Positions 10,554 to 45,687 of a DNA stretch of 64,000 nt are shown here, in pieces. This DNA is from a virus. The stretch lies in IMG/VR virus record IMGVR_UViG_3300030060_002738, positions 1 through 64,000 of that record; one strand, given 5' to 3'. Below the pieces are notes generated by a model. That model worked only from the letters and a program-made list of their open reading frames with translations. It was not told the DNA's origin and did not search any database. Each line of letters opens with the position of its first letter. Within the stretch, counting starts at the first letter, position 1. The position numbers and the translations under genes are program-made.

Positions 10554-10911
10554 GTGTCTTCACCTTTCTTCTACTCATGATTTCATCCCCTAATTTATCC
10601 ATGCATTCTCTGCATGTGCATTCTGTCGGGTGTGGGGGTTCTTGTATCATGACAATCTTATCACCCTTAGAATGTTTTTCTATTCTATATCCGATGAACG
10701 TGTGGTCATCAGGAAATATTTCTGTTACTACCTCTACTTCCTTTTCCTTTGTTAGTTTAGGAATCTCTATCTTTGGTATCTCCACTTCTGATACTATCTT
10801 CTTTGCTTTAGGAGTGAACCATTTTTTGAATTTATTCCATCTAACTAGAATGGAATCTATTCTTCTCTTGTTAGTCCAAGAGAGACTGTTATAGAAACTT
10901 CTCAAAACCAT
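10540..10911 (-). CDS. Hypothetical protein with C-terminal H-x3-C-x-C-x2-C
   Basis: Start re-assigned to ATG 10911, after GGAGG. Confidence 0.5.
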   Translation of the reverse strand: MVLRSFYNSLSWTNKRRIDSILVRWNKFKKWFTPKAKKIVSEVEIPKIEIPKLTKEKEVEVVTEIFPDDHTFIGYRIEKHSKGDKIVMIQEPPHPTECTCRECMDKLGDEIMSRRKVKTHETK

Positions 10912-11840
10912 TCCTCCAAGGATGATTGCTTCGTGTCTTTCTTTATCTGCATTACATCCCAATCCATCGCTCGGAATATTGGCTCTGCTTTCTTCACGAC
11001 TGACTCTGCATAATGAGACCAATCAGGTGTAAACTCGTCAAACTCGTCAGCAGTCAATCTAGACACATAGTTTGGTTTGACGAATGTTCGTGTTAACGGA
11101 TGTCTGTATGTTTGTGTGCAATCCTTAATTCTAAGATACAGATAGGTATCATCTATCGTTTGATATCCCTGAGAATAACTAAACAATACACCCTCGACTC
11201 CTGCACCAAAGGTTGGTCTCTTACCACCCATTGTGACAAAGTTGTTGCAAACCATCAACTCACCACTGTCATCTAGACAACCCCCATTATCCATGAGGTC
11301 AAATACACTTATTCCTTTGACATTAGACCATGCTTTATCGAATCTAGCATGTGGATTACATCTCTTACATACTACCTTGAATCGTTCTTCACGATATCTG
11401 CTTCTTTGTAGGATATCTGTAAGTGATATTTGACCGTTCATCACATCATTGTACTTCTTATTCAGAAAAGATACTATCTTTTGCTCAGATTTTCCTTCTA
11501 TCCACATCCTTAGCACAGTAAGTTGAACATCTTTTGCTAGTTTAGTTAAAGAAACCCTCTTTGCAGTGAATCCAGTCATCACGAACTCCTCTTCATCTAG
11601 AAATTCACCGTCTTTCCAAGTAATTAGACCTGCATTTCTGTTCTTCGTTGCCCCAACACCTAAAGTTCTGAAGTATTTCTCAAACTCTAGTGTTACAGGA
11701 TGTTCTTTCAGTCCCATAACGTTAGGAAACGCTTCTCTGACATGCTCATTCAGTATTTTTAACGTCTTTTCAGCAGTTTCGATGCTATTATCCTCAATAT
11801 CAACATAAATTGAGTCAGTATGACCGTAAACTACCTTCAT
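10902..11840 (-). CDS. polB: Family B DNA polymerase, C-terminal subunit (palm motif C and thumb, PIP box)
   Basis: YGHTDS, LEFEK, KNRNAG, C-terminal QSSLEEWF PIP box. Confidence 0.9.
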   Translation of the reverse strand: MKVVYGHTDSIYVDIEDNSIETAEKTLKILNEHVREAFPNVMGLKEHPVTLEFEKYFRTLGVGATKNRNAGLITWKDGEFLDEEEFVMTGFTAKRVSLTKLAKDVQLTVLRMWIEGKSEQKIVSFLNKKYNDVMNGQISLTDILQRSRYREERFKVVCKRCNPHARFDKAWSNVKGISVFDLMDNGGCLDDSGELMVCNNFVTMGGKRPTFGAGVEGVLFSYSQGYQTIDDTYLYLRIKDCTQTYRHPLTRTFVKPNYVSRLTADEFDEFTPDWSHYAESVVKKAEPIFRAMDWDVMQIKKDTKQSSLEEWF

Positions 11841-11953: not shown

Positions 11954-12156
11954 ATTAGATTCACATCCTGTAATATTGATATTATTCCATAAATGAACAC
12001 AATAGCGAATAAAACTCGACCTGCTACTCTAATGGCAAGCCTACTGTCCTTGAGAATCTGACTTATCGCCTGTTTTCTCAATTCAGTCTCTGATTTAGGC
12101 TCTTCCTTTATCTTTACCTTTGTAAAATCTACATCTGCACTCTTGATTGGCATCAT
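11950..12156 (-). CDS. Small C-terminally anchored membrane protein between the PolB halves
   Basis: 68 aa, C-terminal TM segment VLFAIVFIYGIISIL; ATGA overlaps. Confidence 0.65.
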   Translation of the reverse strand: MMPIKSADVDFTKVKIKEEPKSETELRKQAISQILKDSRLAIRVAGRVLFAIVFIYGIISILQDVNLI

Positions 12157-13850
12157 AACTCCCTCACTTTGAATGCTGCAATACGAATTGCTTCTCTAGC
12201 ACTAGCAGTAATGCTTGCTGCTAAATCAACATCAGCCCAACCAAATCCCTGATACGCAATGATACCATAGAAGGATGCCATCAATCTCTTGACCGCTAGT
12301 TGGTTGTTGTTCCACTTTACATATTCACTTTCACTTTCACTTTCTTTCATTTTCACTTTGTATTCATTTCTCAACTGCTTCAGTTCTAGAACTGCTTTTG
12401 GTAGCAATCCTAGTTCCTTAGTCTTGTAGTATCTCATATCATAGTTGATAATCTTAGAGAAGTCTTTAGGTGTTGCTAGATTTACACCAAATTGTGTTGG
12501 TAGTTTTGACTTGGTTTCCCAAGAGATATTTCTAGCAATCATCATGCTTGGATACAGACCTGCAAAGTCAAAGGCTGCAACACCCAAATGAAGACCATTT
12601 GTAGCCTCACTGAGCGGGTCATAGACCATCGCCCCATCATACTCTACCCTGTCTCCTTTGCGCCCCGTAGGAGCCTTCCATGAGGCATTTCGCATGAAGT
12701 ATATTCCACCCATGTTTGATGCATAGAAACATGCATCGAATGGTGCAATCAGTAAACGCTGTAACGAGAGTATCGCTTCAGTTGTGAAGTTCTCTTCGTC
12801 TATCCTCTTGATTAACTCAACGTCTTTCTTAGCATACTCTAGATAGGTTTCAGTGTCTTCCTGCCAACCTCTTCTGAAGAACTCGTTCTTATCAGGAAAC
12901 TTCTCGCTGACTAACTTCTTCTCTCCTAAGACATTCTCTGATACATAGTCTAGAGATAGAGAAGGTAGAGTTCCTCGTTGTGCATCATTCCATTGTCTCT
13001 CAAATGCCAAGTCAAGAGGGACACATATCCTACCCTTGATTGGCTGTGCTATTGGAGAGTAGTTCTCTATCTGCTTTGTCTTTAGAATATGCCTTCTCTC
13101 CTTGATGTTCCACTCTACTCCTGTAACCTCTTGAACAGGAGACAGTAAAGTAGGAGTAATGCCATTCACATACAGTCTCTCAATCAACTTAGGTAAGTCG
13201 AACTTCCATCCGAACCAAGAGATAAGCATGTCCGGGTCTTTCTCATCTAACATCAATAGGAATCTTTCTAGTATTGTCCTCTCGTTCTCATTGCCATCTT
13301 CAGTATAGCCTTCCTTCTTTGGTTGCCAAGTCAGTGTGTAGTATTCATCATCGTAGTTGTCATACACAACAATAGCAGTAATAGCACCATCATGTTCACC
13401 ACCTTGCATCCACTCCATGTCCCAATACCACTTTCTTAGATTGTACTCAGGAAGTTCATCTAACTCATCAACAGCATATCTGTAATGATGTTGAACATCT
13501 GCTTCATAGGTCTCAATATCTCTATCATGGTAGAACGTTCTTACTTTAGCAGTCATTCCACCTAAACTAGTCTTTCCAGTCTTACAAGGAGTCCAAGTCA
13601 CTTTGAGAAGTGATTCTCCTTCTAAGTTCACCCAATCGCCCTCTTCATAAGTCACAGTGACAACAAACTTCTCTTTGCCTCTGAACCCTTCAGACATCGC
13701 TATCCTTGCTGGCTCTGCTTGTGTAATATCATTAGCACGAATGAAGAAATATGGAGAGAACTCTCGGTAGGTCACAGTCTTCTCGACTCTCTCGTTGTTC
13801 TCATCCCTCCATCTTAGAAGAACGCCTTCTGTTGTATTTGCTATTATCAT
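12153..13850 (-). CDS. polB: Family B DNA polymerase, N-terminal subunit (3'-5' exonuclease, motifs A and B)
   Basis: WDMEW, FDLPKL, YAKKDV, DFAGLYPSMM, QLAVKRLMASFYG, ITASARE. Confidence 0.9.
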   Translation of the reverse strand: MIIANTTEGVLLRWRDENNERVEKTVTYREFSPYFFIRANDITQAEPARIAMSEGFRGKEKFVVTVTYEEGDWVNLEGESLLKVTWTPCKTGKTSLGGMTAKVRTFYHDRDIETYEADVQHHYRYAVDELDELPEYNLRKWYWDMEWMQGGEHDGAITAIVVYDNYDDEYYTLTWQPKKEGYTEDGNENERTILERFLLMLDEKDPDMLISWFGWKFDLPKLIERLYVNGITPTLLSPVQEVTGVEWNIKERRHILKTKQIENYSPIAQPIKGRICVPLDLAFERQWNDAQRGTLPSLSLDYVSENVLGEKKLVSEKFPDKNEFFRRGWQEDTETYLEYAKKDVELIKRIDEENFTTEAILSLQRLLIAPFDACFYASNMGGIYFMRNASWKAPTGRKGDRVEYDGAMVYDPLSEATNGLHLGVAAFDFAGLYPSMMIARNISWETKSKLPTQFGVNLATPKDFSKIINYDMRYYKTKELGLLPKAVLELKQLRNEYKVKMKESESESEYVKWNNNQLAVKRLMASFYGIIAYQGFGWADVDLAASITASAREAIRIAAFKVREL

Positions 13851-19980: not shown

Positions 19981-21528
19981 TCAATATATGTTGCTACACA
20001 ATTCCTCTACGTCATCAAGAGTATTGCAGTCAGCAGGATACTTGTCATCTCTTATTCTGACTATCCTTGGAAATCTCATTCCATAAGTTCCATCTTGATT
20101 CTGACTAATTAAGTCACAAGTGACCTCAAGGACTATTCTAGGCAAGAAGTGGTATGTCCCTCCATTGAAACCATCAACTATTCTTTTCAACTGAGTATCT
20201 AGTGAGTACATCTCTTCCTCTGATATACCACTACCAACCTTACCGATGTTCACATAGTCTGAACCATCTCTAACACTAACACCGTATGTGCCTATCACAC
20301 CTGCTCTCTTTCCCTTTCCATATTCACCTGATGTTATAACAACATCAAGTTCTACTCTTGGTGGTTTGTACTTCAGTAGTGCAACTGTTCTCTTAGACTC
20401 GTACCGTGCATTCAAGTCCTTTATCATCACACCCTCAAAACCACTATTGATTGCTACATTGTAAGCAGCCTCAACATTCCCATGTGTAAACGCCTGAGCA
20501 ACATACTCGGATGGTACAATCGTTTCTAGATACTCTAGCCTGTCGCCATATGTGTCACTGAGTATTGATTGTCCCTGATATAGAAGACAGTCAAACACCA
20601 CTAGTTGAACAGGACACTTGGATATTGCTAGTTGCTTATCCTTTGAATGCACTCTAGTTGCTAATGTCTGATGCGGAGCAGGAGTTCCATCGTTTGTTAT
20701 TGGGTATATCTCAGTATCCAGTATGAAGTTGTTAGACTCCCACTGACTTATAATCGCTACAATATCAGCATACTGCTCTGTGACAATCTTTCCCTTGCGA
20801 TTGAAGATGATAACATCAGTATCCTTCTTGTGTATCTGATACCTATTACCATCATACTTGATATCCATAACGAACTGCTCAGGAAGTTTGCCTAAGTATT
20901 TCTTAGCAAGCATTGGCTTTACAAAGTTACCATGCACCAACTCAGGTGGTTCTAGGTCATTCTCTAGATAGTCAACTAGACTGGTTAGAGAGTGTCCTAC
21001 TGAATACCTCTTGATGTCTCTTTGATAATAGTCAGTCATGGCCTTCTCGACAGTGCTTTTGTTGACACCGTTTCTAGGAGTTCTCAACCAATAGCGGATA
21101 AACCACTTTACTTCTAAAGCAGACATTCTTCCTATTGCATCTCTAATCGTCTCATAACTACCACTGTTGCTCATCGATGAACAATCTAGTTCCAGTAGCC
21201 TTACCATGTCTGAAAGAGAGAAGGTTGAATCAGGTCTATTCGCACTCAGAAACTCTTTCATTCCTTCTCCTAAGTCCATCCAACTATGAGCAGCATCTGC
21301 TATCTCATCCTCAAACACACCTAGAATCTTAGCCATCCACTTGATAGCCTTCTTCTCGCCTATGTTATTCATCTCATACTCAAGTGACAGTATCTTAATC
21401 GCTGCCTTTCTATCCTCAAAGTGAGATAAGGTAGCACAAATCCTGTGTCTCTTTTCTGATGGTGTTCTGTCCTCTAAGGATTCACACATCCTGCTCATTC
21501 GTATCATTGTCATTTTTATTCCTCTCAA
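19981..21528 (-). CDS. lig: ATP-dependent DNA ligase (replication module)
   Basis: KPMLA, KYDG, LDTEI, FDCL, EGVMIK, LKYK, RFPR..R.R.DK. Confidence 0.95.
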   Translation of the reverse strand: MRGIKMTMIRMSRMCESLEDRTPSEKRHRICATLSHFEDRKAAIKILSLEYEMNNIGEKKAIKWMAKILGVFEDEIADAAHSWMDLGEGMKEFLSANRPDSTFSLSDMVRLLELDCSSMSNSGSYETIRDAIGRMSALEVKWFIRYWLRTPRNGVNKSTVEKAMTDYYQRDIKRYSVGHSLTSLVDYLENDLEPPELVHGNFVKPMLAKKYLGKLPEQFVMDIKYDGNRYQIHKKDTDVIIFNRKGKIVTEQYADIVAIISQWESNNFILDTEIYPITNDGTPAPHQTLATRVHSKDKQLAISKCPVQLVVFDCLLYQGQSILSDTYGDRLEYLETIVPSEYVAQAFTHGNVEAAYNVAINSGFEGVMIKDLNARYESKRTVALLKYKPPRVELDVVITSGEYGKGKRAGVIGTYGVSVRDGSDYVNIGKVGSGISEEEMYSLDTQLKRIVDGFNGGTYHFLPRIVLEVTCDLISQNQDGTYGMRFPRIVRIRDDKYPADCNTLDDVEELCSNIY

Positions 21529-21784
21529 TTATCTTATTCAGTGCCTTAGCGACATCTTTCATTTCTTCTATATTCATTCTAACGCCTTTCTTTGTTGGTG
21601 TTCCGTTAGCATACCAACGAATGTCAACGATGTCAACATTCCAATAATTACCTGTTCTCACTGTTAATTCTTCATTCCCGTTTCTTGGGACTCTTACTAT
21701 TATTTTTTCACCCTTCAAGCCAACCACCCTTAAACTGCTGTAAGTTCTTCCACGACTTAAAGTATCGTGGAGACTCTTGTTCAT
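21482..21784 (-). CDS. PC4-like ssDNA-binding protein
   Basis: VDIRWY...PTKKGV motif; the true start is probably downstream. Confidence 0.7.
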   Translation of the reverse strand: MNKSLHDTLSRGRTYSSLRVVGLKGEKIIVRVPRNGNEELTVRTGNYWNVDIVDIRWYANGTPTKKGVRMNIEEMKDVAKALNKIIERNKNDNDTNEQDV

Positions 21785-27262: not shown

Positions 27263-28180
27263 TTAATACGCTCCTGCTACAAAATCACTCACCGATAGAC
27301 TACACATGTCTTCCTTAGTCAAACCGAAGACCTCACACAATGCATGAAGGCTTACTCTCACTCCACTCGTTGATGCTGAACTTCCTGATGCATCGACTAA
27401 CTCTGCCTGTGTGACTTTGATATTCTCCATCTTTCCTGCAACCCAAAGACTCGCTATGATTAGGTTAGGAGAGAGACGCATTTGCTTAACTTTGTAGCAC
27501 TGCTCTATATGTTTTATCAACCGCAGTGCTTTCATTCTATACTCAGGGTCAATTCTTCTGTGTGATTCCAGTCTATCTATGATAGATATTGCTTCAGCCA
27601 TGATATTTCTATGAGTAAAGACTGAAGCGTTTCTGAAATGCTTTGCAATCCTCTTTGCCCAACGTGAGACATACTTACTCTCAACATACGAGAATTTGCT
27701 GTGTGTCTTTAGATTGACAGGTATCTGACTCTCCTTTAGTATGTAATAAGTCAAGGATGCTGCTCTTTGCTCAACTGTGCATCCTCTTAACACATGCTCT
27801 TCTTTCAATGACTTCAGGTATGTCTCAACCTTGTCCATGATACTCTTACTTGCTTTGTAGTTTGACATAATCATCCTTGACCTCGTAATTGTCTCTCTAT
27901 CTGCTTCGGTAAGAGAAGATGCCCAAACGTGCTGTCTTTTCATACGGCTAAACTGTGAGTTAGTGGGAGAGTATTGCCGAGGATAGCCCATGTATGAACC
28001 AAGTCTGTTTGTCACCTCATGTGTCTGTTGACCATCTCTGATTATAGATGTGGTCTCTTCAAACGGCCTGTGGTATAGAACTAAACCGCAGTCTCGACAT
28101 ATCATCTCGCCTATTGCATCGTTGAAGTAACTACTTTCACACTCACATTCGGGACACTTCATGTGCGCTTCTACTTCCAT
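27263..28180 (-). CDS. tfb: Transcription factor B (TFIIB-like)
   Basis: N-terminal Zn ribbon CPEC...GEMICRDCGLVL, followed by two cyclin-like repeats (LRG...AASLTY; P...IASLW...TQAEL). Confidence 0.8.
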   Translation of the reverse strand: MEVEAHMKCPECECESSYFNDAIGEMICRDCGLVLYHRPFEETTSIIRDGQQTHEVTNRLGSYMGYPRQYSPTNSQFSRMKRQHVWASSLTEADRETITRSRMIMSNYKASKSIMDKVETYLKSLKEEHVLRGCTVEQRAASLTYYILKESQIPVNLKTHSKFSYVESKYVSRWAKRIAKHFRNASVFTHRNIMAEAISIIDRLESHRRIDPEYRMKALRLIKHIEQCYKVKQMRLSPNLIIASLWVAGKMENIKVTQAELVDASGSSASTSGVRVSLHALCEVFGLTKEDMCSLSVSDFVAGAY

Positions 28181-35149: not shown

Positions 35150-35850
35150 TATTGTAGGAATGTAAACGCAGAGAAAGACATAGACTGCGAAATCTATACT
35201 ACTAGAGTGTGAAGCATACGATACCGAACAATTCCAGCATGTTTCGGATATCGCTTCTGTCTTTTTTATTTCATAGTAAAACTCTGCTCTTTGTGAGTGT
35301 GATTAGTAAGGTGAAAACTTTGTACCGCAACTGGTTTTCTCTTCATTAAGTTCTTATTGCCTCGTCAGGACTTACACAATTGAACGCCTTACTCTTGCGA
35401 GTGTGATATCGGATAAAAGCATGGGGGAGATGAGTCCCATCACTGCTATTGATTTGCTTTTTTTACCGCAGTAAACCGATGTTTGAATAGAAAGGGGAAA
35501 CGAGTAAGTGCTGTGCCTATACCAACGGGTAGGGAACAGCAACGTGGTAGAACACATTGCCAATATTAATTACTAGACCGGATTATCCTGCTTTATTTTT
35601 TATAGCGCAAAGCCACTCAATTGTTCCCCGGATGGAATTTGACACACCGCTTCCCAATGGGTACAGTGAACCATCCTTATCTGAGCGAACCCGTTTTCCA
35701 CAACTACTAATCTCATCGCTAGATTTGACGTTGGTTGCTTCTATCATAACCCTAGTATCTTTCTCGTTTTTTACTTCGGAAACCCCAAGTTTCTCCATGC
35801 TCGCCGTCATCCCGCTAAAGATTCATGGCTCTACGAGCATTGGTGGAGTG
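35150..35850. ncRNA. Candidate structured non-coding RNA region
   Basis: About 700 bp without a convincing ORF; nested helices and a possible pseudoknot (see findings). Confidence 0.4.
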
Positions 35851-35856
35851 TTATGT

Positions 35857-36189
35857 TTACTCTTGACTCCTGTAAACAAGGAGCAGAGTCAGATATCCTA
35901 TCAAGTCCTTGATGATATCATCATCTGATTCAAGTGAGTCATTACCTTGAACAAGTCTATTCAACTTGTCATCGATTCTGACTTTGATTTGTTCTTCTTG
36001 GTCTGCATGAGAAAAGAACCTTGTTGGATTCAATACTGAATCTCCATACTGCCTGTTCTTCTGAAGTAGCATGTCCCTCATCTCTTCACACATTGATGAA
36101 ATCTGCAACTGTGATTCAGTCATCTCATCAACTAATTCTTCGTTATTGCTTGGTGTTTTTACACCCCATTTGTTCTTTTCTTCTGTCAT
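35857..36189 (-). CDS. DUF1599 / all-alpha NTP-pyrophosphohydrolase-like (nucleotide-modification-associated) protein
   Basis: KNRQYGDS...RIDDKLNRL...DLIGY. Confidence 0.65.
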   Translation of the reverse strand: MTEEKNKWGVKTPSNNEELVDEMTESQLQISSMCEEMRDMLLQKNRQYGDSVLNPTRFFSHADQEEQIKVRIDDKLNRLVQGNDSLESDDDIIKDLIGYLTLLLVYRSQE

Positions 36190-36209
36190 GTTATTTCCAA
36201 CCTGTTTGT

Positions 36210-36570
36210 GCTTTTATCATTTATTATCATATATTATCAGTAGATGATAAAATACAACTTTAGAGCAGTGTTGCGTTTTTCGCATATTTTATCATTTTCT
36301 CAATTTTATCATGGTCTCCATAGGAGAGAGAGAGTAGTATATGTGACATATAGTAGTAGTATAGATGATGATAATAATGATAAAATGATAATATTCAATA
36401 AAATCAACAATTCTAGCAAGTATTCGCACATTTTAATTTTCTCACTCAATGATAAAATCAAGAAAATATGAGAATATCGGAATAGTTGTAAATGACACTA
36501 AGATATGCGATATGAATATACGTCATAAGATATCCATATGACATATATGATATAATATACATATAGGGAG
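36210..36570. repeat. AT-rich iteron-like ATGATAAAA/TTTTATCAT cluster, candidate replication origin
   Basis: TTTTATCAT at 36212, 36287, 36304; ATGATAAAA at 36244, 36377, 36449; located at the divergent strand switch. Confidence 0.5.
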
Positions 36571-36805
36571 TGTCATTCACACCCTATTGCTCGTTAGTAG
36601 ATTTAGGTATCAATAATTACGGACAACTAGCGATTGTCAACTAAAAGCGGATATGGAATCTACTGTGCAAAAGAGAAGTTTCTCTTGAAAGTCCTCAGAT
36701 GATTCTGAGCAACCTTCTACCCAAACATCACTACTTAAAGCGTCATCCACCCCACCTTACCACGCAAAAAAACTGCTGTTATGTGTAAAGTCAGACTTTA
36801 TCACA

Positions 36806-36828
36806 ACCATATGGTTAGACAACTTTGC
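36806..36828. repeat. Cassette junction site 1 (core plus right arm only)
   Basis: ACCATATGGT-TAGACA-ACTTTGC. Confidence 0.8.
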
Positions 36829-36881
36829 TCGCTCTAACCTCATAAAGCGATGATTTTTTGTAAGGCTACATGGAATATGAT

Positions 36882-36992
36882 ATGGAATGTGAAGGTTGTA
36901 AAGAGATAGTGACAATAACAGGTGCTTACCTCGGAGTTATCGAAGACGCATGGTGCGAGTGCTGTGGTTGGGAAGGTGAGAATCTTGAGTGA
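36882..36992 (+). CDS. Zn-ribbon microprotein (cassette 1)
   Basis: MECEGC...WCECCGW, 36 aa. Confidence 0.5.
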   Translation: MECEGCKEIVTITGAYLGVIEDAWCECCGWEGENLE

Positions 36993-37242
36993 TGTTTACG
37001 AATATACAATAGATGAGTGGTCAGTAGATACGAGGAAGTGGTTAGTCACTTCACCAAAGAAACTGACTTACGAACAAGTTGTAGGCTTGGCCTGTGACTT
37101 ACCTGAACAGTCAATCGAGGTTCTTCTTGGTGATTCTGAGATGCCCGGTCTTGAGGGAGTTGTTGTAAACTTCCTTGGAACAGAATATGGTGATGACTCA
37201 CAACATGAGGTACTTGGAGATTTCAAGGGGGAAGAAGAATGA
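36985..37242 (+). CDS. Acidic hypothetical protein (cassette 1)
   Basis: TTG start after an AGGTGA SD. Confidence 0.55.
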   Translation: MSDVYEYTIDEWSVDTRKWLVTSPKKLTYEQVVGLACDLPEQSIEVLLGDSEMPGLEGVVVNFLGTEYGDDSQHEVLGDFKGEEE

Positions 37243-37466
37243 TTCTTACAAACACAATGGATGAAGGTCAACAGGAGGATACAGATAAACTCAAGCAACG
37301 TGCCGTTCATCCAAGCGTTGCTGACTTTATTCAATCTCTTGCTGAATGGGGCTTCAACCATGTAGACCATACGATGCTATGGGAAGCCATGTGTGCAGTT
37401 ATTGAAGCGGGTGAGCGTGGCGACCTTGACGATATCATAGATTATTATGAAGGTGATGAAGAATGA
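37239..37466 (+). CDS. Acidic hypothetical protein (cassette 1)
   Basis: ATGA-coupled. Confidence 0.55.
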   Translation: MILTNTMDEGQQEDTDKLKQRAVHPSVADFIQSLAEWGFNHVDHTMLWEAMCAVIEAGERGDLDDIIDYYEGDEE

Positions 37467-37576
37467 GATGTAAAGTATGTCAAGAAGAACACCACGACAC
37501 TTGCCCTTTGGTAGAGGGTTGTTCATGTTGTGAATGGACAATGAAACAAGCACAAGGAGGAGAACTAGATGTATGA
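37463..37576 (+). CDS. Cys/His-rich microprotein (cassette 1)
   Basis: MRCKVCQEEHHDTCPLVEGCSCCEW... Confidence 0.45.
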   Translation: MRCKVCQEEHHDTCPLVEGCSCCEWTMKQAQGGELDV

Positions 37577-37745
37577 GATAATTAGATTTAGATTTGATGG
37601 AAATCATAGAGTAATCAAGAGAGGGTTAACTCTTGAAGAAGCACAAGAACACTGCCTAGACCCCGAATCAAGTGGGAAAACCTGTTCGGATTTGAGTAAG
37701 CGTGGTAAGTGGTTTGATAAATATACGAAGGAGGAAGGAGAATGA
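37569..37745 (+). CDS. Small phage-type protein (cassette 1)
   Basis: GGAGG SD; GLTLEEAQEHC.DPESS..WFD motif. Confidence 0.6.
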   Translation: MYEIIRFRFDGNHRVIKRGLTLEEAQEHCLDPESSGKTCSDLSKRGKWFDKYTKEEGE

Positions 37746-37951
37746 GAGACATAGAGAATCACATGGTAGCCCTACCACAACCGGAGTTGGAGTACGAACC
37801 TGAGTGCGACCATTCAGACATTCAACATCTAAATGTTGAGTGCTTTGGTGATGGAACATATATTGACTTCAGAATCAGATGTTGTGACTGTGGAGCCGAG
37901 GGTTATCGACTCTACACTATCAAAGAATGGTCAGATGACTTTGACAACTGA
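37742..37951 (+). CDS. Zn-ribbon protein (cassette 1)
   Basis: CDH...CCDCG. Confidence 0.55.
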   Translation: MRDIENHMVALPQPELEYEPECDHSDIQHLNVECFGDGTYIDFRIRCCDCGAEGYRLYTIKEWSDDFDN

Positions 37952-37953
37952 AA

Positions 37954-37978
37954 GCCACCCTTCGGGGTGCGCCGTTTT
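37954..37978 (+). terminator. UUCG hairpin terminator closing cassette 1
   Basis: CACCC-TTCG-GGGTG followed by TTTT. Confidence 0.7.
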
Positions 37979-37983
37979 ACTCT

Positions 37984-38017
37984 ACAAAGTTCTTACCATA
38001 TGGTAGGGAAACTTTGT
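37984..38017. repeat. Cassette junction site 2 (full palindrome)
   Basis: ACAAAGT-TCTT-ACCATATGGT-AGGGAA-ACTTTGT. Confidence 0.9.
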
Positions 38018-38028
38018 GGCGAAGCATC

Positions 38029-38046
38029 TACCCTATATAGTGATGG
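38029..38046 (+). promoter_or_regulatory. Conserved TATA-type promoter of cassette 2
   Basis: TACCCTATATAGTGATGG, identical to 38702-38719. Confidence 0.65.
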
Positions 38047-38102
38047 AAACGTGTATGGTTGTAGTCGTAGGGATGCGACACACTATAATGGAGATGAAAT
38101 GA

Positions 38103-38576
38103 ATGGCGATGGAAAATTGGAATGAATTTAGCGAAACCGTAGTCGCATACTGCGACTCACCGAACGCCCAAGTGGATGAGTTCACTGCTGGAATGGCGAA
38201 GAACTTCATCGTAAAGGGAACTGAAGAGCCGAGGTCACAAGTAAGGCTATCGAGGACAATCAAGGATATCCTCTCTGCGTTTACTGACTCCCCTCTGAAT
38301 GGTCGTGCATCCGGTAGCAGAAAGACCGGAGTACAGAGACTATCCGAGAAAGCACAGGCACTTTGGGCAGACACTGTAAGCATGGAGACCGTTGACGGTA
38401 TTACTACCATCACTCTCGATGCTGAAGCATATGAGTATCACACAACCTTCGCAGGAAGGAAAGACGAAAACGGCGACCCCCTAACATCATGGGGTAGCAA
38501 CGAAAATATGGTCGCTCACACCTTAATGAGCAAACTTGAGAGCGGATTCGTATCCGCCCACAAGGAGGACAACTGA
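38103..38576 (+). CDS. Hypothetical protein (cassette 2)
   Basis: 157-aa ORF after GGAGATGA. Confidence 0.7.
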   Translation: MAMENWNEFSETVVAYCDSPNAQVDEFTAGMAKNFIVKGTEEPRSQVRLSRTIKDILSAFTDSPLNGRASGSRKTGVQRLSEKAQALWADTVSMETVDGITTITLDAEAYEYHTTFAGRKDENGDPLTSWGSNENMVAHTLMSKLESGFVSAHKEDN

Positions 38577-38603
38577 TTAGGTAGTCCTTGCATCCCTGCG
38601 ACT

Positions 38604-38638
38604 GCACTCTTAGGCCGATTTATCGGTCTTTGAGGTGC
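38604..38638 (+). terminator. Hairpin closing cassette 2
   Basis: GCAC-TC..AGGCCGA-TTTA-TCGGTCT..GA-G-GTGC. Confidence 0.55.
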
Positions 38639-38650
38639 ATCGTTCCGAAT

Positions 38651-38687
38651 ACAAAGTAATTACCACCATATGGTAGGGAAACTTTGT
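38651..38687. repeat. Cassette junction site 3 (full palindrome)
   Basis: ACAAAGT-AATTACC-ACCATATGGT-AGGGAA-ACTTTGT. Confidence 0.9.
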
Positions 38688-38701
38688 GCAATAAAATGGC
38701 G

Positions 38702-38719
38702 TACCCTATATAGTGATGG
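38702..38719 (+). promoter_or_regulatory. Conserved TATA-type promoter of cassette 3
   Basis: TACCCTATATAGTGATGG; ATG 38734 lies about 25 bp downstream of the TATA, which is leaderless archaeal spacing. Confidence 0.65.
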
Positions 38720-38733
38720 GCAAAGTGAGGGGT

Positions 38734-38910
38734 ATGGAACCACAATTAATGCCCACTAAGGTATATCAATACGAGATTGAACTAGGTCATGCTAAATCAG
38801 GTTCTGACCATGTTCTAATCATCAAGAGTCTCAAGGTTCGTGGTGATGACTTATCACTAGTCATGGCTGAACTCAAGGCAGGATTACAAAACATGCAGGA
38901 GGTGCTTTGA
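38734..38910 (+). CDS. Small hypothetical protein (cassette 3)
   Basis: MEPQLMPTK... Confidence 0.55.
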   Translation: MEPQLMPTKVYQYEIELGHAKSGSDHVLIIKSLKVRGDDLSLVMAELKAGLQNMQEVL

Positions 38911-39167
38911 TGGGAGCAAAACATGAAGTTGAATATGGTGATTTCGTTTATTCTGATGGTACAATAGAAAGAAGCACAAAAGTCTACTTCGATACTGATA
39001 AAGAATGGAGAGACTTCATCGAGGGATTGAACGGCGAGTATCCTGAAGGATTCTGTGGAGGTACATCAACAACATTCACTAAATGTTGGGTTGTAATCGA
39101 AAGTAAGCGTGTGCCTGTCTCAGAGATGTTCGCTTATCAGCGAAGCCAAGAACAAGAAGAAGAGTAA
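38907..39167 (+). CDS. Small hypothetical protein (cassette 3)
   Basis: GGAGGTG SD; coupled to the previous gene. Confidence 0.6.
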   Translation: MMGAKHEVEYGDFVYSDGTIERSTKVYFDTDKEWRDFIEGLNGEYPEGFCGGTSTTFTKCWVVIESKRVPVSEMFAYQRSQEQEEE

Positions 39168-39169
39168 TA

Positions 39170-39470
39170 CATAACAGGCATTCACAAGGCTACTTGGGAT
39201 GTAAGCCCTGACCACTCCACCCTTAAGGGGAAAGCGAGGTTTCACCAGCGAAGGTGATTCATGAGAATAGTTCGCAGTCTCAGCCTTGTTTGAACAATGG
39301 GGATGATGGACAAACAGTTCGTTCGACATGCAAATATGTGCAGCAGCGTAATTAGTCTTAGATGAAGCCGGAATACACTCTAAGCAATGAATCGGGTATG
39401 AATCCTTATCCATGCAACAACTGTCACTGTCCTGACTCCTCTCTGTTGATGAGGTAGCAGTCGTTTCACT
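39170..39470 (+). ncRNA. Candidate structured RNA inside cassette 3
   Basis: 300 bp lacking a + strand ORF, with multiple helices. Confidence 0.35.
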
Positions 39471-39471
39471 C

Positions 39472-39506
39472 ACAAAGTCCTACTACCATATGGTAACTAA
39501 CTTTGT
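39472..39506. repeat. Cassette junction site 4 (full palindrome)
   Basis: ACAAAGT-CCTACT-ACCATATGGT-AACTA-ACTTTGT. Confidence 0.9.
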
Positions 39507-39558
39507 ATGTTCACCTCATAGTGTGATGGTTTTTCATAAGGTCATGCGAGTACAGCAC

Positions 39559-39801
39559 ATGATAACCAAGAGCGGAAACCAAGCAATGAATCAATTTGAG
39601 GTATTTGATGAAAAGGGAAAGCACTTTCTTTCATATGGGGTTGAGGTAGCAACTATTAACGGCGATGAAGTCACCCTTAACGCTCCTTATTGGGACATGT
39701 ATTCAACGACAACTAATTATTATCTTCTTCAGTTCCTGAATGAACCCTCAATCAAGGACATAAGGCAAAAGGTCAACGATGGCCTTTATCAAACTCGATA
39801 G
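39559..39801 (+). CDS. Small phage-type protein (cassette 4)
   Basis: NQF....F.SY..VA...WD.YS.TT..YL..FL motif; ATG about 25 bp after TTTTCATAAG. Confidence 0.65.
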   Translation: MITKSGNQAMNQFEVFDEKGKHFLSYGVEVATINGDEVTLNAPYWDMYSTTTNYYLLQFLNEPSIKDIRQKVNDGLYQTR

Positions 39802-39883
39802 GCTCAATAATCGAGTATAATGGGCAGGTTAAGAACGGCAGATTTGAAAGAAGCCTCTCATTATTGAGTTAATTGAATGAGGG

Positions 39884-39915
39884 GGCAGCCCCTACACCTT
39901 CAGGGGCTGTCTTCT
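39884..39915 (+). terminator. Hairpin closing cassette 4
   Basis: GCAGCCCCT-ACACCTTC-AGGGGCTGT. Confidence 0.6.
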
Positions 39916-39938
39916 CTACCCTCAAGGTGTTTGTTTAT

Positions 39939-39961
39939 ACAAAGTTCTACCACCATATGGT
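39939..39961. repeat. Cassette junction site 5 (left arm plus core only)
   Basis: ACAAAGT-TCTACC-ACCATATGGT; no right arm. Confidence 0.8.
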
Positions 39962-40350
39962 AATACAACAAACATGGATTGTAAAATATGAGACTATATA
40001 AACTTCCGAACGTTTAATATTTTTACACCCTTAACAGAAACTCCAACCATATGCCAAAATTTTTTTCCTGTTGTTTTTTAATCTCGTTAGTTAAAATAAA
40101 CTACTAGGGTGTTATCCGCTCATACGTTATGTCCCGTAATAACCAACTTAAACGAAAATTTGTAAATTCGGGCGTTATACAAAAAGCGGCTTTTTATGCA
40201 TTAACAGATACAAGTAAAAATGCATTATTTTGTAACAACAGACGATTTACAATTCCTTATCTTGGGAATAGAAAGAAAAAGACGAAAATAAATTCGCTAG
40301 TAGCGAAAAAATTCCGGGCCATTTTTTGAAAAAAGAAGGGGATAAACATA

Positions 40351-40824
40351 TTGCTACCTGTAAGAACCAACGAGAAGGGTGAATGGTTCTCAGGTTTTTT
40401 GAGAGAGAACGAAATTCAGGTCCGGTGGGGAGATGACTTCCTGACTGCTTTGGAAAAGGGATATCCTGAGCATGTCTGTGAGCGGTTGTTCGTTATTGGA
40501 AAGTTCGTAGATGACGAAGTTGTGGCCCACACATCGTTTGCTGATATGGGAAACTGGTACTTTATCGGTAACAACTACGTCAAACCGGGCCACAGGAAGA
40601 AGGGAATCCTGAAGGAAATGGTTTATCGAAGAAATCAGCGTTTGGCTCACTATCCTAAGATTGCAATCTTGAGACCGATAGAAGAAACAGTCCTAACTGA
40701 GTTAATTGGCTTCCTGCTGACCCTTGGATATTCAGAAGTATTATCGTATGCCGATGTGTCGGATGTCATGCTAGAGTCCGAGTATGAGTTAATCTCAGAC
40801 GAAGAACTATGGAGATGCGACTGA
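40351..40824 (+). CDS. GNAT-family acetyltransferase-like protein
   Basis: YVKPGHRKKGI (GNAT motif A). Confidence 0.65.
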   Translation: MLPVRTNEKGEWFSGFLRENEIQVRWGDDFLTALEKGYPEHVCERLFVIGKFVDDEVVAHTSFADMGNWYFIGNNYVKPGHRKKGILKEMVYRRNQRLAHYPKIAILRPIEETVLTELIGFLLTLGYSEVLSYADVSDVMLESEYELISDEELWRCD

Positions 40825-40885
40825 TGTATTACACGACTTCTTTTGATTTTGAGTTGCTATACAATCAGGGAGAGGTGTATCGAAA

Positions 40886-41164
40886 ATGAGTTGGGAAGAT
40901 GTATTGAAGAAACCACTTATTCCATCAGAAGAAGAGGTTGAAGAGATGCTCGATTTTATGAACGTCAGTCCTAGAATGAAGATGGCGAAGTTAGAACGTC
41001 AGATTCTAAGAGAGATTGAGAAGGAAGGAGGTGCTTTGGGAATGAAGAACCTGAAGCAGTTTGCTGATGAGGATAAGTTGAAAGAAGTTCTATCTAGCAT
41101 GGAGAAAGAAGGCAAGATATTCATGCACAAGGATGGAGACATCTACACACATGAACCGAAGTGA
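40886..41164 (+). CDS. Small winged-helix-like protein with WxxVLK leader
   Basis: MSWEDVLKK; ..LSSMEKEGKIF. Confidence 0.6.
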   Translation: MSWEDVLKKPLIPSEEEVEEMLDFMNVSPRMKMAKLERQILREIEKEGGALGMKNLKQFADEDKLKEVLSSMEKEGKIFMHKDGDIYTHEPK

Positions 41165-41973: not shown

Positions 41974-42985
41974 AGGCGAGATTCCTAACTTCGCTGCTCT
42001 TTACAATCGATGGGAGAAAAAGGCGGAGCAGTTCAAGATTGACTACACTGGTAGAACGAACACCAACGTTTTAGATTGGATTGGAAATATCGGACAGAAG
42101 GGAAGGGCCAAGCCTGATGGTTCGACTGGCACAGCAGTAGCCCCTCCTCAAGAGTACATCGACAGAGCCAAAGATGCTGGAACGAAGGATGAGTATTCTT
42201 CTGAGCAGATATCAGCGATAAAGCAACTTCAACAGTACCTCATAGAGAACAAGAACTCAACGACATCAGAGGTTAATCCTGCCAATATCAAATTCAACGA
42301 CATTCGCTCTTTTGATAAGAGCGGGAAGATACTTTCTAGAAGGGATGTGTATGGTGATTTCAGAACCAAACAGTTTGTGAAGTATCAAGCAAGGCACAAG
42401 AAGAAGACCTTCGCACCTGCGGATACTCACTATCTTTCTAGACAGCCCGGTAAGGCAAGACCCCCTACTTGGCAAGCATTGTTTGGGAATACCAAAGATG
42501 TCGCTTTGGACTTCAATAGTCCTAGTCTTCTGATGATAGCCACTTTCACTCTCGATGCCTTTGCTAGTGGAAAGGCGAAGGGAAAAAACACCAAGGCAAG
42601 ACCATTCAACCTAACTAGGGTTAGGCCAAGCATCAGGGGAGAGGCAGCGAAGTGGGCTTACGAGAACATAAGCGATTTGAAAACTTGGTTCGATAGCAAG
42701 ATGAAGGACTCTTCATACCTTTACACGACTGGTAATCTGAATGACAGAAAATTACACAGAGACATCAAGGAGAGACCCTTCAAGTTGACAGATAATGAAT
42801 CCAAGAAATTGCTAGAGTGGGTAGGGGCAGATGTGAATGTCGATTTGGATAAGGTCTTCATCAATCTATCAAGAAGGCAACTTAGGAATATGGCAGAAAT
42901 TGCTGGTTTTGAGAATCAAAAAGAAAAAGAGGAAGTGAAAAAGCACGATTCCTCGGATTGGAGAGAAATTGTAAAGGCGGTATAG
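41897..42985 (+). CDS. Basic hypothetical protein with C-terminal WREIVK motif
   Basis: 362-aa ORF. Confidence 0.7.
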   Translation: MGKRKERNLKPIKKAEIAPGLPVDFEGEIPNFAALYNRWEKKAEQFKIDYTGRTNTNVLDWIGNIGQKGRAKPDGSTGTAVAPPQEYIDRAKDAGTKDEYSSEQISAIKQLQQYLIENKNSTTSEVNPANIKFNDIRSFDKSGKILSRRDVYGDFRTKQFVKYQARHKKKTFAPADTHYLSRQPGKARPPTWQALFGNTKDVALDFNSPSLLMIATFTLDAFASGKAKGKNTKARPFNLTRVRPSIRGEAAKWAYENISDLKTWFDSKMKDSSYLYTTGNLNDRKLHRDIKERPFKLTDNESKKLLEWVGADVNVDLDKVFINLSRRQLRNMAEIAGFENQKEKEEVKKHDSSDWREIVKAV

Positions 42986-43082
42986 AAAATGAAGTGTAGA
43001 GGAATAAAGGAAGTACACCATGATAATATGGCAATAACGACATGTTGCCCGTATTGTTACACAAATTGTTGGGGTGGTTGAA

Positions 43083-43268
43083 ATGGATTGGAAAAAAATT
43101 CTGAAAGAAGAGATGACTGAGGAAGAGAGAAAGAAGTACATGAAGAGATTAGCAGAGTTGCAGCGATTGGAGGAAAACATGAAGCGAGACGTAGAAGGAA
43201 CTGCTGAAGCATTCAGAGAAGGAGAATCTCTTGAACAGTATAAGAAAAGAATGGGATACAACTTCTAG
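43083..43268 (+). CDS. Small coiled-coil protein with WxxILK leader
   Basis: MDWKKILKE. Confidence 0.6.
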   Translation: MDWKKILKEEMTEEERKKYMKRLAELQRLEENMKRDVEGTAEAFREGESLEQYKKRMGYNF

Positions 43269-43276
43269 GTGATTGG

Positions 43277-43933
43277 ATGATTACGAGAAAGCGGTGTCCT
43301 CTCTGTATGCATGAGGATAGAGCCATGTTTGAGAGTGACTTAGAGGAGATGAGTTACACCGCAGATGCTCTTGACCAACAAATGGGTTGGAAAAGTGGCA
43401 CAACAGCAAAGCATCAGAGGAATCACATGGGAGGATATGTCGATTCTGCCAATCCAAGTTGTAATATCTGCACAAGTCCAATGAGAAACGAGTTAGAAGC
43501 CCAACTTCATGCCGGAGAACTTACTCCTTCGCAGGTTGGAGAGATGGTTGAGAGTTCAGAGGTGCAAGTAATGCGTCATATGGAGAAACATCTTAAGCCA
43601 ATCGTGCAACAATCTGCGGCAAATCTGATTGCAGCGAGAGAAGTCGATGAAATTCAGACCTTGAGCGTCAACGTTCAGCGATTGGAGCAAAAAATTGATA
43701 CACTTTTCTCTGAAGATTCGACAGACCCGAAATATATCGACTCATTGACTAAATTAGCGAAGGAAGTTCGTGAATCTCTGAAGTATTTGCTAGAGTTCAA
43801 GGGCAAACTAGTGCATAAGAGACAAGATACCATCATCGTTCATCAGATGCAGGTCATCAAAGAGGTTCTAGCACAGAATCATCCTGAAGTTTGGTTGGAT
43901 GTAAGAGACAAAATGCAGGAGAAGATGCAATGA
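43277..43933 (+). CDS. Duplicated Zn/HTH protein, candidate terminase small subunit
   Basis: Two CxxC-HTH-HxxxH repeats plus a helical oligomerisation region; upstream of TerL. Confidence 0.5.
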   Translation: MITRKRCPLCMHEDRAMFESDLEEMSYTADALDQQMGWKSGTTAKHQRNHMGGYVDSANPSCNICTSPMRNELEAQLHAGELTPSQVGEMVESSEVQVMRHMEKHLKPIVQQSAANLIAAREVDEIQTLSVNVQRLEQKIDTLFSEDSTDPKYIDSLTKLAKEVRESLKYLLEFKGKLVHKRQDTIIVHQMQVIKEVLAQNHPEVWLDVRDKMQEKMQ

Positions 43934-45687
43934 GTTGGCAAGAGGTTCTCAAAGAAAAGAAGGTTGAAGCAAAACCTGTTGCTGAACCAATAAAGAAACA
44001 GGAAGTCAAGGACTTTCCAATAAAACCCGATTCAGCCACATTCAAGATTTGGCAAGCAGCGTCTAAGGATGATACATGGGCGGATTACACAAAAGACGGT
44101 TTGACTTCTTCCCAAGTCCAATCTGTTCAGAAGGCAAAGAGACTTCTTCAAGGGGAAGTTGTGAACATCGGAGGAACTGACTTTCAGTTAAAGGACAGAG
44201 ATGCGGTAGGTAATGTCAATGCGATTATTTCTAGATTGGATAACATAACACCAAAGAAAACTAGTCTTACTGCGAAGAGAAGAAAGGTTAATGCCGATGT
44301 AAAACACTTCATTCAGAATGAGAAGTATGATGAACTTCTCAATCTACTAGAAGGTAGAGGACAAGACAAGTATGCAGGGAAGTTATCGAATGTTGCTCAA
44401 AGGGCAAGAAAAATAATTCAAGAGTCTAAGATACTGAAGAACAAGATACTCAGTGGTGCTGAAGACAAGCATCCTGAGTTGGTTAGGATAAAGGAAATTC
44501 TAAAGATAGGAGGAGTTCCTCAGATTGAGATAAATCAGACAATTCCCGAACCCACTGTTGTTTCTTACATCAAGAAGATAATGGCACTTAACTTCAGTAA
44601 GAACTCAAGGAACAAGACGGACTTCATCTATGAGGATGCAAACGACCAACTTGCTAGGAATATATTCGGACACACCAAGATTCTTCCTTCATTGGAGTTC
44701 ATCTTGGATAACGAGGGACTGAATGAGAGCAACATACCAACAGCCTACAAGAAGAGAAACGTGATTGAGAACATCGCTTTGCAGAAGTTGATTGCTGGTG
44801 TTCTATCAGAGGAGAACAAGGATGCTCAGAAATCCATCAACAGTATCTACGACAAGTACAAGGAAGACATCGAGGCATTCTACGGGAGAGAGGGGGAGAC
44901 TCCTGAAGAGGCAGAGAAAAGGCAGAAACTTCGTAATGAGAGCAGGGGGAAGTGGGATGCCATATCAAGGAAGGGCAACAAAGCAAGAAGGGACTTCTTC
45001 GCAGAGATTAGGGAAGATGATGACACCAATGCTTACTTTGAGGACTTGATGGCCGAAGTGACAGAGGACAAGACAAACAAGATGACATCGGAGATTAGAG
45101 ATGAACTCGTAGAGGCGTTGCAGAACAGTGACCCCGATGACTTCACAGCCTCTCTCAAAAAACTAGGAATCCAAGACACGTTTGATGACATGGAAGAGAT
45201 TGATGAAAAGTTAGACGTTGACAAGACAATAGATGCTTTAGTGCAAATGAAGACATTGCCTAATGGTCTAGTAAGACCTGTTGCGGGAACAGAGGAGACT
45301 CTCAGATACTTTGACGAGCAGGAGATTGATGCTTGGTCTATCTTAGAGGATGTGATAGATGATGACATCACAACTTTCGATGCAGGACAGACTGGAACAC
45401 TAGACAAGATTGTTATCATACAGAAGAGACTTGGGGAACTGTATGATGTTGAGCCTGAGATAGATGAGGAGGATGTCGAGAACGGAGACATGACCAGCGA
45501 GGAGTTCAAGCAGTTGATTCTAGATACTTACAGCCCGATTCGTAAAGCGTTCCTTGAGGGCGTTGCAAAGAGGATGAAGGACATTAGTGCAGAAGGGAAG
45601 GTTCTAGGAAAGAAGATAAAGAGTTCACAAGGCGGTTTCGTTGAACCTGCCATTTGGATTCAGATACAATTAGGGGTGAGCGAGTGA
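43930..45687 (+). CDS. Large helical virion/internal protein with WxxVLK leader
   Basis: Start re-assigned to MSWQEVLKE (ATGA overlap). Confidence 0.7.
   Translation: MSWQEVLKEKKVEAKPVAEPIKKQEVKDFPIKPDSATFKIWQAASKDDTWADYTKDGLTSSQVQSVQKAKRLLQGEVVNIGGTDFQLKDRDAVGNVNAIISRLDNITPKKTSLTAKRRKVNADVKHFIQNEKYDELLNLLEGRGQDKYAGKLSNVAQRARKIIQESKILKNKILSGAEDKHPELVRIKEILKIGGVPQIEINQTIPEPTVVSYIKKIMALNFSKNSRNKTDFIYEDANDQLARNIFGHTKILPSLEFILDNEGLNESNIPTAYKKRNVIENIALQKLIAGVLSEENKDAQKSINSIYDKYKEDIEAFYGREGETPEEAEKRQKLRNESRGKWDAISRKGNKARRDFFAEIREDDDTNAYFEDLMAEVTEDKTNKMTSEIRDELVEALQNSDPDDFTASLKKLGIQDTFDDMEEIDEKLDVDKTIDALVQMKTLPNGLVRPVAGTEETLRYFDEQEIDAWSILEDVIDDDITTFDAGQTGTLDKIVIIQKRLGELYDVEPEIDEEDVENGDMTSEEFKQLILDTYSPIRKAFLEGVAKRMKDISAEGKVLGKKIKSSQGGFVEPAIWIQIQLGVSE

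Follow-up and report, generated by a model that had tools for sequence, protein, structure and literature searches.

A composite palindromic element with a predicted archaeal promoter bounds exchangeable gene units in a magrovirus-like genome

Anatomy of the accessory-gene block

The stretch of DNA analyzed here (the window) comprises 64,000 nt, positions 1-64,000 of IMG/VR record IMGVR_UViG_3300030060_002738, a virus record of 98,040 bp in all (G000). At the GC-skew minimum, where the minus-strand replication genes give way to plus-strand genes that include the terminase and the structural genes, there is a block of small genes divided into four units by a recurrent boundary element. The core of this element is the 10-nt palindrome ACCATATGGT, present in exact form at 36806, 37995, 38665, 39485 and 39952; these are the sole five copies in the entire record and they all lie inside one 3.2-kb block (36806-39961) at the strand switch. 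The core is flanked by short arms, ACAAAGT on the left (at 37984, 38651, 39472 and 39939) and ACTTTG on the right (at 36822, 38011, 38681 and 39500). A first-pass annotation, made from the sequence alone, had described five sites with CAAAGT/ACTTTG arms, the first lacking its left arm and the last its right arm. Both observations hold, the starts that it gave for the last four sites being those of their left arms.

The element is widespread among related viruses. An IMG/VR pattern scan found it on at least 119 stretches, with 611 cores in 1.04 Mb; the cassette, pair, box and arm counts given below rest on the stretches listed. Chance can be excluded as the source of the sites, since five relatives that were found by similarity to a 157-aa protein of the block, and not by the motif, carry five exact sites each (25/25) with the same anatomy. 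Arrays reach 14 sites, as in L024 (IMGVR_UViG_3300030333_003061, 42705-45332), which has 14 cores in 2.6 kb at a spacing of 117-364 bp. The cores of L024 are mostly armless and leave no room for genes, so that the array takes a denser form that is apparently non-coding. A scan of 596 Gb of cellular genomes gave scattered single matches to the pattern in unrelated bacteria, roughly as many as chance would produce, and no set of host operators.

The absence of the outer arms at sites 1 and 5 is a pattern that extends to 79 array ends: the outward halves there have an arm in 16/79 cases (20%), versus 65% of the inward halves and 502 of the 718 internal halves (70%). Because the outward halves at array ends are mostly armless, the arms travel with the units.

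A reading of the core as a restriction site was ruled out, CATATG being unavoided in this DNA (42 observed versus ~33 expected). As a separate matter, neither CCATGG nor CCTAGG, both palindromes, occurs anywhere in the 98 kb, whereas CATATG and GATATC are common; the absence of the first two may reflect the avoidance of host restriction sites. A literature query for CCATATGG returned unrelated primer-type matches only. Site 5 is followed by an intergenic stretch of ~390 bp (39962-40350), with no convincing open reading frame (ORF) before 40351; at ~40045 it holds a degenerate copy of the core, AACCATATGCC, within a motif conserved in the relative L008 (CTCCAACCATATGC...AAAAATTTTTTTCC).

Promoter boxes and covarying hairpins

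Each of the units opens with a related promoter-like motif, as had been proposed at the outset, and this motif proves to be real in all four (Table 1). Its geometry was measured on 559 unique sites from the IMG/VR relatives: the box, ACC(C/T)NA(T/A), has its start 22-26 nt from the centre of the core, and 30-31 nt further on comes the first ATG (standard deviation 1.3). Box-plus-ATG motifs lie at most 60 nt downstream of a core in 163 of 301 cases (54%), a zone that makes up 3.7% of the 1.04 Mb, and a box follows 357 of 709 arms versus 57 of 415 armless halves. In some arrays divergent promoters share a single site, and the boxes are uniform within each genome and different between genomes. 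A canonical TATATAAA, conserved in relatives, is also found downstream of site 5 (39995-40002).

A box-to-ATG spacing of ~31 nt is the textbook arrangement of the archaeal transcription factor B recognition element (BRE) and TATA box of a leaderless mRNA, which starts at or close to the ATG. The internal genes of the units have strong Shine-Dalgarno sites and the first genes do not, as in many Euryarchaeota. Judged by this geometry, from which both the transcription start and the activity are deduced, the boxes are predicted to be archaeal BRE/TATA promoters and not bacterial ones; since the box lies ~31 nt ahead of the first ATG, the transcripts would be leaderless or have short leaders. Bacterial-phage readings were dropped, a sigma-70 -35/-10 fit failing because the arm-to-box spacing varies and Bacteroidetes-type promoters being equally unfit. 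The search for a T7-like RNA polymerase (PF00940) gave no match in the genome, but as the control genomes also gave none, it is uninformative.

The arms, although present as first described, are not simple operator half-sites. Each of them sits in the loop of a hairpin whose stem is formed by the core GGT plus a variable spacer, paired with a variable stretch plus ACC, and such covarying loops had been foreseen by neither the integron-like nor the operator model of the first-pass annotation. Of 300 cases, 299 have the (A/G)CTTTG arm inside the loop. Contiguous Watson-Crick stems of at least 5 bp are formed by 41% of the halves (9% in a swapped control) and stems of at least 7 bp by 10.7% (0.3% in the control), with 88 distinct stem strings. 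Because the stems covary, the seemingly variable spacers are best seen as compensating stem halves. Of 217 halves on the promoter side, 208 have a stem whose end coincides exactly with the opening ACC of the box; at site 1, too, the 3' ACC of the hairpin is the start of the promoter box. At site 2, GGTAG (38002-38006) pairs with CTACC (38028-38032), and the left hairpin of site 4 pairs GGTAGCAG (39455-39462) with CTACTACC (39480-39487). Stem mismatches are mainly G.T, G.A and T.T on the outward-reading strand (G.T 16 versus A.C 3), a weak hint that one strand folds. One long hairpin between the left and the right arm was ruled out, there being no covariation between them and no correlation between the spacer lengths. 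Rfam gave no match in 35500-41000.

Unit exchange among relatives

The first-pass annotation had also predicted that the cassette order would vary with its breakpoints at the sites, and this is what the relatives display: their order is not fixed and the breaks coincide with the sites. The window and the relatives L008 and L009 have the unit order A-B-C-D, whereas L005-L007 have A-D-B-C, with unit D translocated. Of 166 pairs of loci with two or more units in common, 98 have a colinear order, 25 a permuted one and 43 an inversion of one locus relative to the other. The pair L032 and L075 provides an in-place inversion from site to site with colinear neighbours, and in L067 versus L099 (~97% identical around the joint) a 95-bp unit has been removed exactly core to core.

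These events can be located rather precisely. High-identity alignments end near a core (at most 20 nt away) at four times the expected rate. In 45 cases both partners have a site at the alignment end, and in 34 of these the sequences on the far side are unrelated. In 30 of 43 cases the similarity breaks off 5-6 nt beyond the core centre, right after ATGGT, and the near side is often identical up to the core; at the breakpoints the flanks are 91-97% identical up to that point. A few breaks are at an arm instead of the core. Units have thus been moved, inverted, gained and lost among the relatives, with homology mostly ending in the 10-bp core.

DNA contigs assembled from public runs (Logan) bridge the sites, and strain differences are also found inside the units. 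One DNA contig (run X2) skips 38851-39234, 384 bases that take in most of unit 3's second ORF, and the ends of this skip are at no palindrome, and there are loose contig ends inside units at 36990, 38806 and 39214. A query for an empty site (CAACCATATGGTAGCAG) had 0 matches but was too narrow to be meaningful.

The virus and its predicted host

The record encodes a TFIIB zinc ribbon protein (ORF 27263-28180), RFC, an ATP-dependent ligase, RNR, a terminase and a PD-(D/E)XK nuclease, as well as a RecA-like AAA_24 ATPase. Its family-B DNA polymerase (PolB) is split over two ORFs (12153-13850 and 10902-11840), a hallmark of the group B magroviruses (PMC5434244), and the sequence is present in marine metagenome runs. 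The 98,040-bp record thus shares with the magroviruses a tailed-virus genome of ~65-100 kb, a marine source, an archaeal-type replication set and a split PolB. The TFIIB zinc ribbon, RFC, split PolB, ATP-dependent ligase and RNR argue for an archaeal host, and by its gene content we assign the virus to the magrovirus-like, group B-like tailed viruses of the marine group II archaea (Poseidoniales). A nucleotide search of a phage collection found no match and the terminase has only distant relatives there. The magrovirus literature searched (PMC5434244 among it) contains no mention of promoters, palindromes or repeats. The DxDGD motif is absent from all ORFs of more than 150 aa.

Outside the window, the structural block of the record includes an ORF of 2376 aa (G000:C1:78430-85560) with no PHROG, Pfam or PDB sequence match, and downstream of it are tail-fibre-like ORFs of 2120 aa and >1900 aa.

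Genes and features of the block

The coordinates of the sites, boxes, genes and hairpins are collected in Table 1. All ten unit ORFs are small, lie on the plus strand and have no Pfam match; the suggestion that they are early host-takeover genes is therefore without evidence. The first ORF of unit 1 encodes 40 aa with a CxxC...CxCC pattern and is the only ORF of that unit kept in the relatives. The 157-aa protein of unit 2 has an AlphaFold model with a pLDDT of 84 and no fold match in the PDB. In its gene, the 5' leader (38060-38078) is complementary to the 3' trailer (38588-38606) over 19 nt, with three non-Watson-Crick positions that are all G-U compatible, and the 5' arm of this pairing (GGTTGTAGTCGTAG...) is conserved in relatives. 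Across the relatives there are 171 cassette families, of which 119 are singletons, and the median unit measures 537 bp.

The unit upstream of an element usually closes with a hairpin and a T-run ahead of it. Terminal structures had been claimed for all four units; the hairpins of units 1 (weak), 2 and 4 stand, but the end of unit 3 has no significant fold in its last 85 nt, and its tail has no Rfam match. Contigs from the RNA libraries of two studies match parts of units 2 and 3; their cover is partial, and that none of them spans a site does not count as evidence. One of them runs over 38898-39340, from an ORF of unit 3 into the tail, which may be a long 3' untranslated region or a small RNA.

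Table 1. Sites, promoter boxes, hairpins and genes of the block (positions in the window)
Feature	Position	Strand	Remarks
Site 1, core ACCATATGGT	36806..36815		Without left arm; backbone side of array
Site 1, right hairpin, GGTTAGA (36813-36819) / TCTAACC (36833-36839)	36813..36839	+	Loop contains the arm ACTTTG (36822-36827)
Unit 1, BRE/TATA-like box ACCTCATAAAGCGATG	36837..36852	+	33 nt upstream of ATG 36870
Unit 1, genes (six tightly packed small ORFs)	36870..37951	+	36870-36992; 36922/36985-37242; 37239-37466; 37463-37576; 37569-37745; 37742-37951
Unit 1, closing hairpin GCCACCCTTCGGGGTGCGC, then TTTT	37954..37972	+	-11 kcal/mol, z -1, weak
Site 2, ACAAAGT-tctt-ACCATATGGT-agggaa-ACTTTGT	37984..38017		
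Unit 2, box ACCCTATATAGTGATGG	38030..38046	+	Gene with 5' leader (no ~31-nt offset)
Unit 2, gene, 157 aa	38103..38576	+	Commonest cassette family, 73/112 loci; no Pfam match
Unit 2, structured 3' end	38577..38650	+	Hairpin 38612-38629 within larger fold; -29 kcal/mol, z -4.2
Site 3, ACAAAGT-aattacc-ACCATATGGT-agggaa-ACTTTGT	38651..38687		
Unit 3, box ACCCTATATAGTGATGG	38703..38719	+	31 nt upstream of ATG 38734
Unit 3, genes	38734..39167	+	38734-38910 and 38910-39167
Unit 3, ORF-less tail, ~300 nt	39168..39471	+	Nucleotide-level conservation in relatives (L007)
Site 4, ACAAAGT-cctact-ACCATATGGT-aacta-ACTTTGT	39472..39506		
Unit 4, box ACCTCATAGTGTGATGG	39513..39529	+	31 nt upstream of ATG 39544
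Unit 4, gene, 85 aa from ATG 39544	39544..39801	+	
Unit 4, closing hairpin, 15-bp G+C-rich stem	39879..39916	+	-35 kcal/mol, z -3.4
Site 5, ACAAAGT-tctacc-ACCATATGGT	39939..39961		Neither right arm nor box

On the other side of the array, the stretch 36190-36560 is AT-rich and non-coding, has repeated GATAA/TATCAT motifs and a GAGAGAGAG run, and is near-identical in five relatives. It is followed by a conserved TATACATATAGGGAGTG and then by more conserved non-coding sequence up to site 1. Because it lies at the strand switch and the GC-skew minimum, 36190-36560 is likely to be a replication origin.

Search for recombinases and regulators

A site-specific recombinase had been suggested as the driver of the system, but none of the families searched is encoded in the complete genome. 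Six-frame searches of all 98 kb found no tyrosine recombinase (PF00589, present in 14/14 control genomes), and neither a serine recombinase (PF00239), an rve-type DDE enzyme (PF00665), a Y1-HUH enzyme (PF01797) nor Hjc (PF01870), for all of which the controls matched. The gene that adjoins site 1 (35857-36189, 110 aa) has no significant Pfam match. There are two sub-threshold Pfam hints, one GMT-wHTH-like in 40886-41164 (E 0.013) and the other PC4-like in 21482-21784. The weak winged-helix match of 40886-41164 is in a 92-aa protein with the N-terminus MSWEDVLKK; if this protein were DNA-binding and its terminus a capsid-targeting tag, it would be a candidate for a delivered regulator.

What the element may do

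The boundary element is a composite one, it is linked to one class of archaeal-type promoter, and it is the place where the units are exchanged; this much is firm. As for its function, the explanation that we favour, with about even confidence, is that of a regulatory and boundary element that doubles as a recombination hot spot with no dedicated recombinase. We favour it because no enzyme was found and because there are precedents, namely the promoter-early stem-loops (PeSLs) of T4-type phages and a motif of the haloarchaeal virus HGTV-1 (both discussed below). The accessory-gene block is built from self-contained units, each boundary being a composite cis element with the invariant palindrome at its centre and a hairpin-capable arm of ~30 nt toward each adjoining unit. 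In the stem, the core GGT and 2-5 variable bases pair with their complement and ACC, leaving (A/G)CTTTG in the loop. On the promoter side, the stem's 3' ACC is also the first triplet of the predicted BRE/TATA box, from which the host RNA polymerase would transcribe with TBP and TFB. Some protein would read the element as a regulatory or boundary signal, and the secondary structure may gate the promoter. Being identical at every boundary, palindromic and structure-prone, the core would be the preferred crossover point, with the exchange itself probably proceeding via general recombination or template switching. The whole would be the archaeal-virus counterpart of PeSL-mediated modular shuffling.

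Several of our results sit uneasily with this explanation. A 10-bp identity is very short for RecA/RadA-type exchange, yet ~70% of the resolvable breakpoints are there, and such a focus is more in keeping with a targeted cut or strand exchange than with homologous recombination of a diffuse kind. The arms are as frequent on the terminator sides as on the promoter sides and the outward ones are mostly missing at array ends; they behave as unit-end repeats and not as parts of an operator. The palindrome-to-box distance varies (standard deviation 3.1), which is awkward for an activator that must bind a given face of the helix, and the covarying stems imply a single-stranded form that an ordinary double-stranded operator does not need. 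Finally, a Pfam search of 40 small ORFs identified no DNA-binding regulator or other binding protein.

Some of these points would be accounted for by a dedicated site- or structure-specific recombination system with an integron-like logic, which we regard as possible but clearly less probable. The units would leave as circles with one full site (arm-core-arm) and re-integrate into any core, in either orientation, by strand exchange in the palindromic CATATG overlap. The enzyme would be either a viral ORF without a family match or a host protein, with the hairpin arms as accessory or recognition structures, as attC is for IntI. The concentration of breakpoints in the 10-bp core, with well-conserved flanks up to it, is what such a system would produce, and deletion, inversion and translocation are all seen, as a symmetric overlap predicts. 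The outward arm is missing at 63 of the 79 array ends, as if units had entered a bare backbone core, and the arms are conserved in structure rather than in sequence; the bias toward G.T and G.A mismatches could, weakly, hint at strand-specific folding as well. The difficulty lies in the six-frame searches, which recovered no tyrosine or serine recombinase, DDE or HUH transposase or Hjc, and also in the breakpoints that are at arms instead of the core, in the strain variation inside the units, away from the sites (the skip within unit 3 and the loose contig ends), and in the fact that every unit has its own promoter welded to a hairpin, unlike integron cassettes. We would tentatively imagine an unrecognised recombinase or nuclease, of the virus or of its Poseidoniales host, to which the twin hairpins present CCAT/ATGG for cutting and rejoining. 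It is likewise conceivable, if doubtful, that promoter-bearing units are excised as circles and reinserted either way into any core, including those of co-infecting viruses.

It seems improbable that the site serves a dimeric regulator alone, as its operator or upstream activating sequence, and has no special part in recombination, with selection simply retaining the whole-unit recombinants. A perfect 10-bp palindrome ~55 nt upstream of the deduced start and tied to one promoter class would suit such an operator, as would its sharing by divergent promoters, and the homogenisation of the box within each genome fits co-evolution with a trans factor. However, exchange anywhere in the intergenic spacers would keep the units whole, yet the breaks map to the core; moreover, a double-stranded operator has no need of covarying stems, neither the missing outward arms at the array ends nor the terminator-side arms are explained by it, and the Pfam search of the small ORFs yielded no regulator for it. 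Least of all do we expect a replication-linked element (iterons, priming or fork-pausing sites) by the adjacent putative origin, with recombination as a by-product of fork stalling. Next to the array, at the strand switch and GC-skew minimum, there is indeed a non-coding, AT-rich stretch that is highly conserved and has GATAA-type repeats, and replication would supply the single-stranded DNA that hairpins need; but there is one site for each gene unit, over distances of up to 8 kb, and the sites track the promoters, not the AT-rich stretch.

Comparison with known systems and significance

The regulatory and boundary element that we favour has its closest parallel in the PeSL cassettes of T4-type phages (Arbiol et al. 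2010, PMC2839356; Comeau et al. 2014, PMC4122927). Both are repeated promoter and stem-loop motifs that precede small ORFs without known homologs in a plastic region, both mark points of insertion, deletion and replacement between relatives, and neither has a dedicated recombinase. What defines the PeSL class is also found here: a promoter joined to a stem-loop motif (its activity being deduced from geometry), small ORFs of no known family in a plastic region, and breakpoints at the motif. The PeSLs, however, use sigma-70 promoters and have no invariant palindrome, and their exchange is ascribed to homologous recombination over the whole motif. The magrovirus element instead has a predicted archaeal BRE/TATA box, an exact 10-bp palindrome with covarying hairpins, crossovers in the core and in-place inversion. 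For the PeSLs, mini-circles have been shown (PMC2839356, PMC4122927).

A second parallel comes from the haloarchaeal myovirus HGTV-1, for which a TATA-plus-inverted-repeat motif before the left-arm ORFs is described (Sencilo et al. 2013, as reported in PMC3950731); according to the latter, its authors likened the motif to PeSLs and proposed regulation and shuffling as its roles. By that description, both are archaeal tailed viruses that combine a TATA-like box with an inverted repeat ahead of many small ORFs. They differ in host lineage and in sequence, and the shuffling suggested for HGTV-1 is documented here across many relatives, the two motifs being compared by description.

With integrons the magrovirus arrays share small head-to-tail units, variable content and a distinct first site. 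Their boundaries may be comparable too, since covarying hairpins are present that, as in attC, are conserved more in structure than in sequence, but a pair of hairpins around an invariant core departs from the attC architecture. On the other hand, the magrovirus genome has no IntI-type tyrosine recombinase, every unit has its own promoter in place of a common Pc, the core is invariant and palindromic, and there are two hairpins per joint versus one attC per cassette. The integron-like shuffling first proposed for this locus is therefore borne out as an evolutionary pattern of translocation, inversion and insertion or deletion, but not as a mechanism, given that no recombinase was found in the searched families. 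The kind of element is already known; what is new is its invariant palindrome, the pair of hairpins fused to the BRE/TATA box and the junctions precise to the core.

In the surface ocean, magroviruses rank with the most abundant viruses of archaea; to our knowledge, neither they nor their hosts have been cultured and almost nothing is known of their gene control or gene exchange. The boxes described here provide a sequence-defined promoter class for the marine group II archaea and their viruses, with an ACC(Y)NATA box predicted ~31 nt before a leaderless ATG, and ACCATATGGT with its CTTTG-loop hairpins is a simple marker that locates the accessory-gene block in any magrovirus contig. The hundreds of swapped, flipped and lost units, with junctions resolved to the base pair, constitute a natural data set with which one can test, in an archaeal system, the old question of whether the accessory genes of viruses are shuffled by passive exchange at regulatory repeats or by a dedicated enzyme. 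Should an enzyme act on the core, it would be a new recombination tool and, if the structure-guided system were true, these archaeal viruses would possess an analogue of the integron that differs from it in chemistry and in the design of its sites.

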